Below are positions 4,324-23,917 of a DNA stretch of 44,739 nucleotides, in pieces. The position numbers and the translations under genes are program-made. Under the pieces are notes generated by a model, which did no database searches, was not told the DNA's origin, and saw nothing but the letters and a program-made list of their open reading frames with translations. The stretch is from a virus (lineage: Duplodnaviria > Heunggongvirae > Uroviricota > Caudoviricetes). How positions within the stretch are numbered: position 1 is the stretch's first letter; each line of letters starts with the position of its first letter. The DNA is taken from the IMG/VR virus record IMGVR_UViG_647533158_000005, one strand, 5' to 3'.

Positions 4324-4897
4324 CATTATCGCGTCCTCAACAATGAATTTTGTGATGCAGTGCCTGGTGCCTCCAGGTGACGTTAACCAGTTAACAATTA
4401 ACGCCGGAATACATAAGAGGATACTTACGCCAGTAAAAGACCTCTTTACTGATTTAACTGTTCCGCGTGCGCATAGCCGCATTCACCGCATCACAAAATT
4501 CACTTTAAAAAGGGCGGCAGAGCAGTCACGGAGTAAAACTGATACCGCCAAATGTCACCAGAAAATTGATAACAGAGGGCGTTGCAGCGGGGTTGTCACT
4601 TAAGCGTATGGTCAACCTGACAACCCGGTGTCCTCAACGGGGAAGGAATAACCCCGCCATACTTACCGCCGCGCCATTTCGCGGAGTGCCGCAACCGGAA
4701 GCGCACGGTCGACGAAAATTTAACGACAGGCTATCTATGAACCAGCTACCTCGCCGTGCGCTTTCGCGTTATGGTCTGACTTTTCAGGGAAATATCCTTT
4801 CAGTAAACTGTCAGTGCCGGATGCTCACCCGTGTCCGGCGCACGCACTCCACCTCACCCGTGGAGAACTCCTTAATCACCAACCCTCAGGAGGGTGA

Positions 4898-18003: not shown

Positions 18004-19944
18004 ATGGCGTTTAAACATTACGATCTGGTTTCTGCCAGTAGCTGTGATGAACTGCAAAAAAAACTGGCAGAAAAAATAAGTGAAGGGTGGCAGCCATATA
18101 GTTCGCCGTTTACTTCGTATGACGATAACGGGATGAAGTTTATTCAGGCTGTTGCCGCAGAAGGTGAAGTCAGGGTTCCTGTTGAAGTTCCTGATGACGG
18201 TGATGGTTCACAGACCACAATTACCTCTGGTGCACCTGACTATTACTACGTGGTGGTACTCGCCGGCCAGTCCAACGGGATGGCCTACGGTGAAGGGCTT
18301 CCGTTACCGGATTCATTTGACCGTCCTGAACCGCGAATTAAACAACTGGCACGCCGCAGCACTGTGACGCCGGGCGGTACGCTGTGTAAATATAACGACC
18401 TTATTCAGGCAGACCACTGCCTGCATCATGTGCAGGACATGAGCGGGATAAACCACCCGAAAGCTGACCTGAGTAAAGGGCAGTATGGCTGTGTCGGTCA
18501 GGGGCTGCATATTGCCAAAAAACTTCTGCCTTATATTCCGCAGAATGCCGGGATACTTCTGGTTCCCTGCTGTCGTGGTGCTTCGGCATTCACCACCGGG
18601 GATGACGGCTCATTCAGTGAGGTCAGCGGTGCTTCCGCTGATTCTTCACGCTGGGGAGCCGGTAAACCCCTGTATCAGGACCTGCTCAGTCGCACCAGAG
18701 CGGCGCTGGCGAAGAACCCGAAAAATAAACTTCTGGCTGTGGTATGGATGCAGGGAGAGGCAGACCTTGCTTCAGGAAGTCAGCAGCATAATGGTTTATT
18801 CACAGCCATGGTTCAGCAGTTCAGAACCGACCTGTCTTCGCTTGCTGCGCAGTGCGTAAGTGGAAATGCTGCCACGGTGCCGTGGATTTGTGGTGATACC
18901 ACGTATTACTGGAAAAACACGTATGCCACGCAGTATGAAACAGTCTATGGCGCATATAAAAATCTGACCGCACAGAATATTTTCTTTGTGCCGTTCCTGA
19001 CGGATGAGAATGGACAGAACACGCCAACGAATGCTCCGGCGGAAGACCCGGATATTGTGGCTGTCGGGTATTACGGTGCGGCATCCCGTACCCAGGGCAG
19101 TTTTGTCTCCACACAGCGTGACAGCCATTTCAGCTCATGGGCACGCAGGGGCATCATTTCTGACCGTCTGGCCTCCGCTATTCTGCTCCATGCAGGGCGC
19201 ACGGCTGAACTGATGGGCGGGCAGGCCGTGACACCACCGGATGAGAAGCCGTCACCTGACACCCCGTCAGCGGACGGGAAATCAATGACAACGCTGCTTT
19301 CTTACCGGGCATCGGAGTCAGGCGGAGCACTGAAGTCACAGGGATGGGCGGCTGCCGGTGGGAGTGCCATTATTGTTGATGATGCCGGTGCCAGCGGGGG
19401 CAAGGCGCTGAAGCTGACAAAACAGACCGGAAAGTCATGGTTTATGCAGCATGATGCCGGTAATGGTGCTGACCTGCTGGAAAAAGGTGGCCTTGTCAGC
19501 TGTCGTTTTAAACTTGATGGCGCGCTTACGGCTAATCAGTACGCACTGGCGCTGTACTGGCCGGTTTCTTCGCTGCCTCAGGGCGTCACACTGGAAGGTA
19601 ATGCCGGTCATAACCTGCTGGCATCGTTTTACGTTCAGAGCGATGCCACAGACCTTAACGTGATGTACCACAAGGGTAATCCGGACCAGAACACGAAGCT
19701 GGGTTCATTCGGTGCATTTAATAACGAGTGGCATACGCTGGCATTCCGTTTTGCCGGTAATAACAGCATTCAGGTGACGCCGGTGATTGATGGTAAGGAC
19801 GGGACACCGTTCATGCTGTCGCAGTCTCCGGTAGGGACACTGGCGGCAGACAAGTTACGCCTGACAGATTTAACCAGTACGGCAACATATCCGGTGCTGA
19901 TTGACAGCATTTTGGTGGAAGTGAATAACCCGTCAGCAGGATAA
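18004..19944 (+). CDS. Prophage sialate O-acetylesterase-like protein (NanS-p family, SGNH/SASA domain)
   Basis: 646-aa ORF with GAGGA Shine-Dalgarno; VVLAGQSNG motif typical of SASA/SGNH esterases; size and position (upstream of lysis genes) match NanS-p of Stx phages. Confidence 0.75.
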   Translation: MAFKHYDLVSASSCDELQKKLAEKISEGWQPYSSPFTSYDDNGMKFIQAVAAEGEVRVPVEVPDDGDGSQTTITSGAPDYYYVVVLAGQSNGMAYGEGLPLPDSFDRPEPRIKQLARRSTVTPGGTLCKYNDLIQADHCLHHVQDMSGINHPKADLSKGQYGCVGQGLHIAKKLLPYIPQNAGILLVPCCRGASAFTTGDDGSFSEVSGASADSSRWGAGKPLYQDLLSRTRAALAKNPKNKLLAVVWMQGEADLASGSQQHNGLFTAMVQQFRTDLSSLAAQCVSGNAATVPWICGDTTYYWKNTYATQYETVYGAYKNLTAQNIFFVPFLTDENGQNTPTNAPAEDPDIVAVGYYGAASRTQGSFVSTQRDSHFSSWARRGIISDRLASAILLHAGRTAELMGGQAVTPPDEKPSPDTPSADGKSMTTLLSYRASESGGALKSQGWAAAGGSAIIVDDAGASGGKALKLTKQTGKSWFMQHDAGNGADLLEKGGLVSCRFKLDGALTANQYALALYWPVSSLPQGVTLEGNAGHNLLASFYVQSDATDLNVMYHKGNPDQNTKLGSFGAFNNEWHTLAFRFAGNNSIQVTPVIDGKDGTPFMLSQSPVGTLAADKLRLTDLTSTATYPVLIDSILVEVNNPSAG

Positions 19945-20749: not shown

Positions 20750-20962
20750 ATGAAGATGGATAAACTGGCAACAGGTGTGTCCTATGGTTCATCGGCGGCA
20801 GGAACGGGTTACTGGCTGTTTCAGTTGCTGGATAAGGTGACGCCTTCACAGTGGACGGCGATAGGCGTGCTGGGGAGCCTGCTGTTTGGTCTGCTGACAT
20901 ACCTGACGAACCTGTATTTCAAAATTAAAGAAGACCGACGCAAGGCGGCGCGGGGAGAGTAA
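20750..20962 (+). CDS. S: Class II holin (phage 21 S-like pinholin) with dual-start motif
   Basis: 70-aa product [13 protein letters not shown]...[33 protein letters not shown] matches S21; Met-Lys-Met dual start. Confidence 0.85.
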
Positions 20963-20966
20963 AGCG

Positions 20967-21281
20967 ATGAAGAAAAAATATGAACTGGTTGTTAAAGGGA
21001 TAACTAATTACGGGGATAAGATTACTGTTACTGTGAAGCCGGAAGGTGACTGGCAAGCGTCGCTGTTGTCGCAATATGTGGTGATTGATCTTGAACGTGT
21101 TGAAGGTGCCCCGCTGGAATTTTACGAAGCGGAGGCGAAAAAACAGGCGAAGCAGTTTTTCATGGATATTGCTGTCGGGTTACGTGAAGGGGATGACCTG
21201 CTGACAGAAAAACGCCTCCGTTCAGAGGCGCTGTACACTATAAAAATTAACAGCTCAGATAACACGATTGCTGGTTGTTAG
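20967..21281 (+). CDS. Hypothetical protein inserted between holin and endolysin
   Basis: 104-aa ORF starting 5 nt after the holin stop; no recognisable motif. Confidence 0.45.
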   Translation: MKKKYELVVKGITNYGDKITVTVKPEGDWQASLLSQYVVIDLERVEGAPLEFYEAEAKKQAKQFFMDIAVGLREGDDLLTEKRLRSEALYTIKINSSDNTIAGC

Positions 21282-21517
21282 CCTTTTGTTTCAGTTGGCT
21301 TTCCAATATCTTTCATTGGTAGCAGCATTTCCAGATTGCTTTTGATATATGGATTATTTACATGTTCATTTAATTGATGAATGATTCCATTTTTTTCATT
21401 CTGGTCCAGTACAGAAAATATTACTGTAATCATATATTTAAGAGCTTCAATTTCTTTTGCTGTTGAGGAAGGAGATGAGCAGTCCACTGCAATATTAATC
21501 ATAGCTTCTTTTTGCAT
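21278..21517 (-). CDS. Hypothetical small protein (79 aa), antisense to lysis operon
   Basis: GAGGA Shine-Dalgarno 7 nt upstream of ATG; very AT-rich; 3' end overlaps the 20967..21281 gene by 4 nt. Confidence 0.35.
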   Translation of the reverse strand: MQKEAMINIAVDCSSPSSTAKEIEALKYMITVIFSVLDQNEKNGIIHQLNEHVNNPYIKSNLEMLLPMKDIGKPTETKG

Positions 21518-21647
21518 ATAAAATCCTCAGATGGGGTAGCTCAGCCAACCACCCGGATACTTAACTGGAACACCAGTGTCGCACTACTGGCGGGTGAAGA
21601 TTTAACATATCCAGGGATTCGGAACCGATAAATCCTGATAAATATCC

Positions 21648-22181
21648 ATGAACGCAAAAATCAAATACGGCCTGTCGGCTGCCGTTCTGGCGCTGATTGC
21701 CGCAGGTGCTTCTGCGCCTGAAATCCTCGACCAGTTTCTGGATGAGAAAGAAGGCAACCACCTGACGGCATACCGTGACGGTGCCGGGATATGGACTATC
21801 TGCCGTGGTGCCACCCGGGTGGATGGCAGACCAGTAGTCCCCGGCATGAAGCTGACGAAGGAAAAATGCGCTCAGGTTAATGCCATTGAACGTGACAGGG
21901 CGCTGGCGTGGGTGGAGAAAAACATCAAAGTGCCACTGACTGAACCGCAGAAAGCGGGGATTGCGTCGTTCTGTCCGTACAACATCGGGCCGTCGAAATG
22001 CTTCACCTCAACGTTTTACCGGAAGCTGAACGCCGGAGACCGGAAAGGTGCATGTGCTGAAATCCGTCGCTGGATATATGACGGCGGTAAAGACTGCCGG
22101 AACCACTCAAATAACTGTTACGGGCAGGTGTCGCGGCGTGACCAGGAAAGTGCGCTGGCGTGCTGGGGAATTGATGAATGA
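21648..22181 (+). CDS. R: Endolysin, phage lysozyme with N-terminal SAR (signal-anchor-release) segment
   Basis: 177-aa ORF; hydrophobic Ala/Gly-rich N-terminus ([15 protein letters not shown]) followed by lysozyme-like catalytic region ([20 protein letters not shown]); followed by Rz/Rz1. Confidence 0.85.
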
Positions 22182-22645
22182 ATCGTATCTTAGCCGGAGT
22201 GGCAGTTGTCCTCCTGGTGGCCTGCGGTGCGCTGTGGCTGGCAACAGACCACTACCGGGATAACGCCATCACCTACAAGGCGCAGCGCGATAAAAAAGCC
22301 AGTGAACTGAAGCTGGCGAACGCCACCATTACTGACATGCAGCAGCGCCAGCGTGATGTTGCTGCACTCGATGCAAAATACACGAAGGAGTTAGCCGATG
22401 CGAAAGCTGAAAATGAAACTCTGCGCGCTGATGTTGCCGCTGGTCGCCGCAGCCTGCGCGTCAACGCCACCTGCGTGTCCACCACAGACAAAACCACCGG
22501 AACCGCCAGCATGGATAATGCAGCCCGCCCCAGACTGGCAGACGCCGCTGAATGGAATTATTTCACCCTCAGAGACAAGTTGAAAACGATGCAGGCGCAA
22601 CTGGAAGGGGCGCAGGCATATATCCGTACTCAGTGTCTGAAATAA
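22178..22645 (+). CDS. Rz: Rz-like inner-membrane spanin
   Basis: 155-aa ORF overlapping the endolysin stop; N-terminal transmembrane helix then coiled-coil-like region; contains embedded Rz1 frame. Confidence 0.8.
22398..22583 (+). CDS. Rz1: Rz1-like outer-membrane lipoprotein spanin (embedded in Rz, +1 frame)
   Basis: 61-aa ORF wholly inside Rz; signal peptide with lipobox-like Cys, Pro-rich mature region. Confidence 0.65.
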
Positions 22646-23710
22646 GTTTTGCTGATGCGCCGTATCGTCACCGTATTCCCGCATTAACAGAGACCGCAGC
22701 CATTGCGGGATACTCCTCTGCGTGAGTGTGCGGGGATAATCAAAAACGATACACACCGGGGTTTACCGTGTTAACGGAGCGCGGCGTTGTCCCCTCATGG
22801 TCGCCCGTCCGGTGCGATGGTGGAAGAAACCGGAATGATGAATTGTGAATGCAAAATATGGTTCTGCATTGAATAATACTGGCATTGTTTCCTGTTTACA
22901 TCCAGAACATATTTAAATATGCCTGCCTGGGACAGAGTAAAGTGGCTACGGAAAAAAGGTATGCTACCGGATAAATGTTTTTTGATAACCAGTTTTGTCC
23001 AGATATTGTTTGATCTGTGGTTTATATAAACAGGTCTTTTTTTGGTCTGTACCGTGATCATACTATGGTTATGTGTGGTAAAGCGTATATTCCCTGTAGA
23101 CAGGAAATAAAAACAATGCGAGATATCATTTTTTTTAAGATAGTCAGTGACGGAAATAATATCGCTATTGTGTGATGAAATAAGCAAGGATATAACAGAG
23201 CTAAGCCGGTTGTTCTCTGTGGTGACACAATCTGGAGGCGATAAATCAGAATGCGTGATGTAAAGATTAAGCATGTAAAACCATGGTGTTTAACTGAAGG
23301 TTACTGTGCGGCGGGAAAATAATGAAGTGAAAAGCTAATGTCTATTTGTTATTTTCGCATGATAAAGCAGAGGTATTATTTTTTTGCTAATTTATTCTTT
23401 TGATATGTCTTATCTGTATTTGTGGTTGGTTGTAAACCTCTATTGCAACTGACATCGTCAGCAATGTTGCATACTCATTCAGGTGCAACATGGCGTGGAA
23501 GAAAGAATACAGGTATGAGGATATTTGAGTGGATGATAAAAAAAAGCCGCAGGTGGTATGCGGCATGAAATGGCACGAATCAGTGGATATATCTTTTTTC
23601 GTTTGTATTTTTATCTTATTTCCAGAGGTGTAATCAATTCGAAAAATACGTGAGAACAGAGCGTATATTTTCGACCTTTTTATGGGTCCTCCTGGTGGGG
23701 TCGGCCTGTC

Positions 23711-23735
23711 CACGGGGCGGGTCGGCGCGGAAAAA
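23711..23735. other. Candidate cos site (cosN-like) about 190 bp upstream of terminase small subunit
   Basis: cacggggcgggtcggcgcgg resembles the lambda cosN region (acggggcggcgacctcgcggg); spacing to the terminase small-subunit start matches lambda cosN to Nu1. Confidence 0.4.
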
Positions 23736-23917
23736 GGCGCATTTTTGTGATTTTATCGTCATCATCATCATGTGTGTAACTTATTGTTTTTAATTGTTTT
23801 AATGCAAAAAAGATGATGGATGTGGTTGATTTTTGTTCGACATCTTTGTGGGGCGGTATTTCTTTACAAAAAAAACAGAGTCACTTCTGTTTTGCGGGTT
23901 ACGTGGAGGACGTGTAA

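Follow-up and report, generated by a model that had tools for sequence, protein, structure and literature searches.

In phages HK97 and HK022 (NC_002167 and NC_002166), two small genes that converge and overlap at their 3′ ends lie between the late genes I and J of the tail operon, the reverse one with its own terminator. Their products, gp22 and gp23, are annotated as 'moron product' and 'reverse moron product', and HK022 gp23 also as 'srb protein; moron gene product'. The annotation is said to come from the genome paper of Juhala et al. 2000. A similar pair is found between gpM- and gpL-like genes of phage ES18, where gp24 (DUF1327, 30.7 bits) faces the reverse gp25, both are annotated as 'possible moron; function unknown' and terminators are annotated on both strands. 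Here we report that the 44,739-nucleotide (nt) viral sequence IMGVR_UViG_647533158_000005 (hereafter the window, to which all unmarked coordinates refer), a lambdoid prophage resembling Shiga toxin (Stx) phages, carries such a pair within its lysis cassette. The forward member encodes a 104-amino acid (aa) protein of the YdfR family (DUF1327) and the reverse member a 79-aa protein; both are located between the genes for the holin (S) and the endolysin (R). Since a conserved leader together with a reverse gene recurs at many sites, often facing a DUF1327 or gp22-like gene, we consider it probable that the pair is a copy of a two-gene module of the 'moron plus reverse moron' type that is mobile and recurs among prophages. 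The type itself is already known by annotation from HK97, HK022 and ES18, and the window adds a new member at a new insertion site. This assignment draws on the observed anatomy, coding status, homology and mobility of the pair, on its terminator, and on the conservation and structure of the leader.

The gene pair and its counterparts

An earlier note on this DNA had described a convergent gene pair between holin and endolysin, and our analysis bears out the description with all its coordinates. The 104-aa open reading frame (ORF) starts 5 nt past the holin stop codon, with GGAG upstream, and its own stop codon and that of the 79-aa ORF share the TTAG at 21278-21281, so that the genes overlap by 4 nt. 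The same note had called the 79-aa gene AT-rich and equipped with a good Shine-Dalgarno (SD) sequence. Indeed, the GC content is 28-31% across this ORF versus 47-60% in the flanks, and GAGGA at 21528-21524 (minus strand) is positioned 6 nt ahead of the ATG.

The premise that S, R and Rz normally run without interruption turned out to be wrong. In the K-12 prophage Qin the order is essQ-ydfR-rrrQ, that is, holin, YdfR-family gene and endolysin, and other Stx phages have the same order. In several inspected records of Stx-producing Escherichia coli (STEC) and Stx phages, the holin and YdfR-family genes are followed by a reverse gene from a different family and a lysozyme gene, and the exact arrangement with the 79-aa gene is present in about 100 other E. 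coli genomes.

Qin provides a collinear reference. There, ydfR also begins 5 nt past the holin stop, in the same cassette position as the 104-aa gene, but it overlaps the start of rrrQ, its product has a different tail, and both the reverse gene and the leader are missing. Compared with Qin, the stretch from ydfR to R in the window is longer by about 370 bases, which comprise the reverse ORF and its upstream region. A second group of counterparts consists of Stx2 phage 86 (gp05 and gp06), Stx1_14040 and prophages of O104:H4 and O145, in which S, a YdfR-family gene, a reverse gene and R follow one another. Phage 86 and related STEC prophages share the promoter-proximal part of the leader (21569-21640) at about 90% identity, but their YdfR-family proteins are longer (263-268 aa), and phage 86 gp06 (104 aa, phrog_1853) is unrelated to the 79-aa protein (BLASTP E-value 0.11).

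HK022 and HK97 have the same leader as the window (128.6 and 83.2 bits, respectively, with the covariance model described below), as does the reverse gene of ES18 (117.7 bits). The differences concern the site and the genes. In HK97 and HK022 the module resides in the tail operon rather than in the lysis cassette, and its forward gene is gp22-like (phrog_11851) and not clearly DUF1327; HK97 gp23 and the 79-aa protein are cargos of different families. In ES18, the module lies between tail genes and the 95-aa cargo shares no detectable similarity with the 79-aa protein. Moreover, a late-strand terminator separates the module from gene J in HK022 (locus L059, 2451-2468) and in HK97 (L060, 2444-2466), whereas the window copy has none and directly adjoins the R start codon. 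Phage lambda also has a reverse accessory gene beside its lysis cassette: bor, located downstream of Rz, encodes a lipoprotein and is expressed from the prophage. It is not known to have sequence or leader similarity to the 79-aa unit.

In the sense of Hendrix and Juhala, a moron sits between genes that are adjacent in a relative, deviates in composition, has its own promoter and its own factor-independent terminator, and is expressed from the repressed prophage. The genes ydfR and rrrQ are adjacent in Qin, and both the deviant composition and such a terminator are found in the window. The idea of an independently acquired moron, raised in the earlier note, is supported by the composition, the SD sequence, the conserved terminator, the absence from collinear Qin and the homology to a moron of HK022; the promoter is a putative one.

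The reverse gene encodes a predicted small helical protein

Profile searches with both proteins, which the earlier note had proposed as a check, assign the forward one to DUF1327 and phrog_2735 and the reverse one to phrog_21218, and both ORFs exceed what is expected by chance. The 79-aa protein matches phrog_21218 end to end (3.4e-56). Among intact copies with synonymous divergence (dS) of 0.1-0.6, the ratio of nonsynonymous to synonymous divergence (dN/dS) is 0.19-0.50, and the reading frame is still open in copies at dS of about 0.6. Distant homologues also keep the frame along with a conserved motif, DCS..S.A.EI..LK. Thus, the 79-aa ORF is a genuine protein-coding gene, which is under purifying selection as a protein.

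The family is very small. A word-indexed search of 5.8 billion proteins returned seven clusters, all from E. coli or metagenomic runs. An exhaustive hidden Markov model search of 1.84 billion representatives added four real small relatives with 45-51% identity, the remaining matches being long repetitive proteins. With these distant relatives included in the alignment, AlphaFold2 (AF2) produced a three-helix bundle (helices 16-35, 39-50 and 56-68) with a predicted local distance difference test (pLDDT) score of 85.7. A first AF2 model, for which the alignment was shallow, had been poor (pLDDT 60), and its Foldseek matches were meaningless. The product is predicted to be a small soluble cytoplasmic three-helix protein. 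Neither the 79-aa nor the 104-aa sequence shows a hydrophobic stretch of transmembrane length, and neither protein matches any lysis family.

No solved structure or curated family accounts for the 79-aa protein, and a search of PDB sequences with its family profile gave only chance-level matches to uL1. Similarity was detected to the reverse moron of HK022: hhalign aligned the 79-aa family with gp23 'srb' over 57 columns (probability 94.8%, E-value 5e-8), and gp23 itself matches phrog_21218 (7e-4). Judged by these profile comparisons, the 79-aa protein and HK022 gp23 are remotely homologous. The literature that we searched offered no explanation of the label 'srb'. A link to DUF2594 (the YecF family) is a lead only. 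The reverse gene of mEp506 is labeled DUF2594 by its depositors, and the distant homologue P0011 scores below the thresholds of the two DUF2594 models (15.7 bits against a cut-off of 24, and 14.9 against 100); the window protein itself has no match to either PF10769 or NF007904.

Codons 41-43 of the gene contain a run of seven adenines, in which loss of one base leads to 48-aa variants. Such variants were seen in strain A25 as well as in clusters P0006 and P0007, the latter present on 185 contigs; their wide spread suggests frequent slippage-driven inactivation or phase variation.

A conserved structured leader precedes diverse reverse genes

The region between the 79-aa gene and R is occupied by a putative promoter and a leader, together an element of about 130 nt. 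Read in the cargo sense, it comprises a T-A-N-N-N-T hexamer, a gap of about 8 nt, UCAGCC, hairpin P2 (CGCCAGUG...CACUGGCG), a variable spacer and hairpin P3 with the nearly invariant loop AUGGCUGA; the SD sequence follows 2-5 nt after P3, and then the start codon. Every cargo gene has its SD sequence at the same distance from the leader. A covariance model of the leader, built from 13 diverse copies with the window copy among them, yielded exactly one match in the window (21512-21642, minus strand, 100.5 bits). It likewise matched once per related locus, with 50-129 bits, but not in Qin (L004). Leaders were located at 2477-2603 of L059, 2475-2602 of L060, 1797-1921 of L066 and 1801-1928 of L063, and at about 20 other loci as well.

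The base pairing is well conserved. In 23 distinct sequences, 95.6% of the cells in the nested leader helices are paired, versus 18-43% when the partners are slid. Four leader pairs show double changes, a count reached in at most one of 500 shuffles. One pair of P2 is a U-G wobble in 7 of the 23 sequences, which fits an RNA of the cargo-sense strand only. In P3, the sequence varies while the pairing is kept (CGGAGG/CCUCUG, AAGAGG/CCUCUU, GCAGAG/CUCUGC and AAAAGCG/CGUUUUU). The best P3 stem averages 5.5 in length, compared with 4.4 after shuffling, and none of the 500 shuffles reached the observed value. For the window itself, the best gap-free P3 stem is CGGGUGG/CCAUCUG, and the arms GGGUGG/CUACCC at 21534-21554 were read by eye. 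The P3 loop, GGCUGA, is complementary to the UCAGCC at the 5′ end, suggesting a pseudoknot or an alternative pairing between the two. Since both segments are almost invariant, covariation cannot test this pairing.

The leader is more conserved than the ORFs downstream of it, suggesting that its copies respond to one regulatory input, for instance a pseudoknot between loop and 5′ end acting on translation or stability, or a common trans-acting factor. Rfam 15 gave no gathering-level match in 20900-21750, with only chance-level matches at E-values up to 10, and no match in seven other leader-bearing loci. Absent also from the literature searched, the leader may be the only part of the locus that is new. 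We tentatively propose, as a serious possibility, that it constitutes an undescribed portable cassette of enterobacterial temperate siphoviruses, in which a promoter and structured leader drive fast-diversifying, small and mostly helical reverse-moron proteins antisense within late operons.

Two other readings of RNA in this region were dismissed. ARAGORN and Rfam find no tRNA at GGGGTAGCTCAGCC on the plus strand, which had a tRNA-like appearance, and the prophage small RNAs (sRNAs) AgvB/AsxR and Pas are located downstream of pR′ and around the esterase gene, not between S and R.

The strong conservation of the leader might also mean that the functional product is an RNA, either the leader or the whole antisense transcript, with the 79-aa ORF being secondary or spurious. 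Truncated ORFs are frequent, and STnc6030 of BTP1, a prophage antisense RNA that excludes superinfecting phage, sets a precedent for such an activity (PMC7067206). Nevertheless, we regard an RNA product as very unlikely. The dN/dS values are well below 1, distant homologues keep both frame and motif, the three-helix model is confident, and the constant distance between leader and SD sequence applies to every cargo.

The position of the element bears on another proposal of the earlier note, that the antisense gene might modulate lysis timing. Antisense transcription could do so either by interfering with late transcription into R and Rz or by occluding the ribosome-binding region of R. The element stops just 6 nt from the R start codon, and the reverse unit is convergent with the late transcript. 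However, the same element lies between tail genes or after Rz in other phages and so has no fixed link to lysis genes, Perceval shares the arrangement of the window, and the 79-aa ORF is under purifying selection as a protein. Late transcription is, moreover, Q-antiterminated and highly processive, as known from lambda. Taken together, these points make lysis tuning improbable.

Terminator and probable autonomy of the reverse unit

The 79-aa gene ends in its own intrinsic terminator, which begins 46 bases beyond the stop codon, inside the 3′ coding region of ydfR. It consists of a GC-rich stem of nine pairs followed by TTTTTC and is present on the minus strand only. In four diverged copies (NGF1, L013, L014 and L016), the stem is kept with pairing-preserving base changes, and the distant homologues of L017, L020 and HK022 each have a terminator of their own just past the stop codon.

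Similar hairpins occur in long YdfR-family genes that face other cargos. In phage 86, the part of gp05 encoding the YdfR tail (L005, about 1950-1990) contains a minus-strand terminator-like hairpin followed by TTTTCC, and the YdfR-like gene of Stx1_14040 (L006) has the same hairpin in degraded form. In both cases the nearest reverse gene is 500-700 nt away, and the hairpin may be a relic boundary of cargo exchange.

The putative promoter of the reverse gene is located at the other end of the unit. A conserved T-A-N-N-N-T hexamer stands 8-9 nt ahead of the conserved 5′ end of the leader; in the window, TATGTT (21609-21604) and TTTATC (21632-21627), both on the minus strand and 17 nt apart, were picked by eye as candidate -10 and -35 hexamers. 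The motif CTG-N9-CAGG upstream of some leaders was considered as a LexA box and discarded on inspection by eye, as its spacing is off by one and it is absent in the window.

Several observations weigh against the module as we describe it. A simple sigma-70 scan detects no canonical promoter upstream of the reverse gene in either the window or HK022, and the proposed hexamers, read by eye, are weak and fall below the threshold of the scan. Most leader pairs are invariant, so that covariation support for P1 and P2 is modest, amounting to the four pairs with double changes. Finally, frameshifted 48-aa copies are common, which implies that the 79-aa protein is dispensable in many hosts or that only its N-terminal half matters.

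Distribution and mobility of the module

About 2% of complete E. coli genomes (102 of 5,426) contain the module with the 79-aa gene, among them NGF1, NC101 and LF82, and a YdfR-family gene always stands beside it. RefSeq labels the two products 'YdfR family protein' and 'hypothetical protein'. Only one of 50,697 phage records contains it, that of Perceval, deposited as a complete phage genome, in which the order S, ydfR, reverse gene and R is the same, in line with the arrangement being compatible with lysis.

The leader is far more widespread than this particular cargo. Its segment 21569-21640 recurs, with about 90% identity, in some 300 additional E. coli genomes as well as in numerous Stx phages, and at the loci of this kind that we inspected the reverse gene differs from the 79-aa gene. 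Other cargos include gp06 of Stx2 phage 86 and an ORF of about 210 aa in Stx1_14040, and the prophages of O104:H4 and O145 encode different proteins again. When IMG/VR was searched with the core hairpin sequence, 35 loci came up, which encode at least eight more cargo proteins. A scan for the P2 core across species genomes detected a single species representative, Kluyvera sichuanensis, and therefore the host range cannot be mapped in that way.

The insertion sites are equally varied. Leader and reverse gene are located between S and R in Stx2 phage 86, Stx1_14040 and the O104:H4 and O145 prophages. The phages mEp213 and HK633 carry them after Rz, ES18 and SPN3UB between tail genes resembling gpM and gpL, and HK97, HK022 and mEp506 between I and J; the leader has also been seen distal to the tape-measure gene. 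In at least 13 of the 25 loci examined, the forward partner is a DUF1327 or HK97 gp22-like (phrog_11851) protein, and the pair tends to travel together. The forward protein of L014 is a natural hybrid, in which a gp22-like N-terminal part is joined to a YdfR tail. Despite this hybrid, homology between DUF1327 and HK97 gp22 was not supported by hhalign.

The two proteins of the window differ in their similarity to the NGF1 copy: the reverse protein is 94% identical and YdfR only 54%, which indicates that the region is mosaic. That the leader is more conserved than its cargo also suggests that cargo genes are swapped by recombination within the leader and the terminator.

Could the two genes instead be functionally coupled, with the reverse transcript or protein controlling the YdfR-type gene through the 3′ overlap, the terminator or protein contact, and the module moving as a unit? 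Convergent forward–reverse pairs with overlapping 3′ ends are found in at least four different genomic contexts, the terminator of the reverse gene is always inside the forward gene, and the L014 hybrid combines parts of both kinds of forward protein. However, ydfR stands alone in Qin and other Stx phages, and reverse genes of the same family lie beside unrelated genes in L020 and HK633. The cargo family also changes (the 79-aa ORF, phage 86 gp06, the Stx1_14040 ORF) while the forward gene stays, and the unequal identities to NGF1 reflect mosaic exchange rather than co-evolution. Functional coupling is therefore unlikely in our assessment.

The forward gene and possible roles of the pair

The 104-aa protein is a clear member of DUF1327, matching positions 1-89 of the 93 in PF07041 with 99.5 bits (1.3e-28; cut-off 25), and also matches phrog_2735 (8e-40). 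It is 36% identical to K-12 YdfR over the whole alignment (39% by tblastn). We considered whether its C-terminal tail results from read-through into inserted DNA and rejected this possibility: the tail (YTIKIN...) aligns with that of K-12 YdfR (YSFKIE...), and in the long YdfR proteins of Stx phages it runs on in the same frame. The functional data that we found for the family concern K-12 YdfR only: its residues 1-72 are reported to mediate binding to the catalytic N-terminal half of RNase E, and the protein co-purifies with RNA (PMC13232886).

That two small adjacent prophage genes have no known function is a general picture that also fits a toxin-antitoxin or toxin-immunity pair, as the earlier note had suggested. 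This is scarcely credible for the window, and the suggestion failed on several counts. The genes are convergent and not operonic, searches with PADLOC, Pfam and NCBIfam gave no toxin, antitoxin or defense match, and each gene is found without the other (ydfR in Qin, the reverse gene in L020). In addition, their predicted phases of expression are opposite, late lytic for one and lysogenic for the other.

If the pair is a moron and reverse moron module, the following sequence of events can be envisaged. The forward gene, for which no promoter of its own was detected, would, judging by its position, belong to the Q-antiterminated late transcript that also covers S, R and Rz, so that YdfR would be made along with the lysis proteins. 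The reverse gene, in turn, appears to form an autonomous unit composed of a putative weak, non-canonical promoter beside the R start, a structured leader of about 80 nt, the SD sequence, the ORF and the terminator. In Salmonella prophages, reverse accessory loci that lie antisense to late regions have promoters of their own, from which they are transcribed in lysogens (PMC7067206). By analogy, the repressed prophage would express the reverse unit as long as the late operon is silent, and after induction, convergent Q-antiterminated late transcription would shut it down. The 79-aa protein would most likely bind another protein and might act as an accessory factor of the lysogenic-conversion or phage-exclusion type rather than as a part of the lysis machinery. 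Nothing points to a lysis function for the pair: the leader element is not tied to lysis genes, and the order in Perceval is the same.

For the lysis cassette itself the insertion is of little consequence, being common and already annotated as 'hypothetical'. Its interest lies in the connections. The 'hypothetical' genes between S and R in prophages of STEC, extraintestinal pathogenic E. coli and adherent-invasive E. coli become linked to the classic moron pairs of HK97, HK022 and ES18, and HK022 gp23 ('srb') now has relatives encoded by prophages of E. coli, for example in NC101 and LF82. The leader would offer a practical handle, as one covariance model finds these accessory genes, and its regulation could account for the way in which prophage accessory genes of an entire class switch between lysogeny and lytic growth.

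Other features of the window

The lysis cassette and the elements of the reverse unit are listed in Table 1. The N-terminus of the holin, MKMDKL, suggests dual starts.

Table 1. Lysis cassette genes and elements of the reverse unit in the window
Feature	Position	Strand	Remarks
SASA/NanS-p-type esterase gene	18004-19944		Upstream of holin
DUF1378 and DUF826 genes			Between esterase and holin
S21-type class II holin	20750-20962	+	PF04971 Phage_holin_2_1, 6.1e-33
104-aa YdfR-family (DUF1327) gene	ATG 20967 to TAG 21281	+	Forward member
Intrinsic terminator of 79-aa gene	21232-21211	-	Inside 3′ coding region of ydfR (...EKRLRSEAL...)
79-aa gene	21517-21278	-	Reverse member, between forward gene and endolysin
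A7 run, slippage-prone	21390-21396	-	Codons 41-43, GAA AAA AAT
Putative promoter and leader element, ~130 nt	21518-21642	-	Upstream end adjoins endolysin start
Hairpin P3	21534-21554	-	Loop GGCUGA 21546-21541
Hairpin P2	~21571-21592	-	
R21-like endolysin	21648-22181	+	PF00959, 1.9e-26; hydrophobic N-terminal segment resembling a signal-anchor-release domain
Rz spanin	22178-22645	+	PF03245, 6.5e-48
Embedded Rz1 ORF, 61 aa	22398-22583	+	Named Rz1 (PF06085) in source contigs

A second AT-rich reverse gene (22795-23274, minus strand) is located between Rz and the terminase genes. It encodes a 159-aa DUF1398 protein of the K-12 YdfO family, lies inside an AT-rich stretch (22800-23900) and has no copy of the leader element. 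This gene is probably a second reverse moron.

Other RNA features were also detected. A match to the STnc100 sRNA family (102 bits) at 17112-17301 on the plus strand lies just upstream of the esterase gene, in the region where sRNAs of the AgvB/AsxR type and Pas are described. In the early region, a full-length match to the sok antitoxin RNA (116 bits; 11127-11302, plus strand) implies a type I toxin-antitoxin locus of the hok/sok type. DicF sRNA is likewise matched over its full length (77 bits; 4512-4563, minus strand), as in K-12 Qin. Downstream of the Q region, two adjacent tRNA genes occupy 16329-16484 on the plus strand. One of them is a tRNA-Met (CAT), and the other was assigned the four-base anticodon tttt by ARAGORN and scores 45 bits with the Rfam tRNA model.

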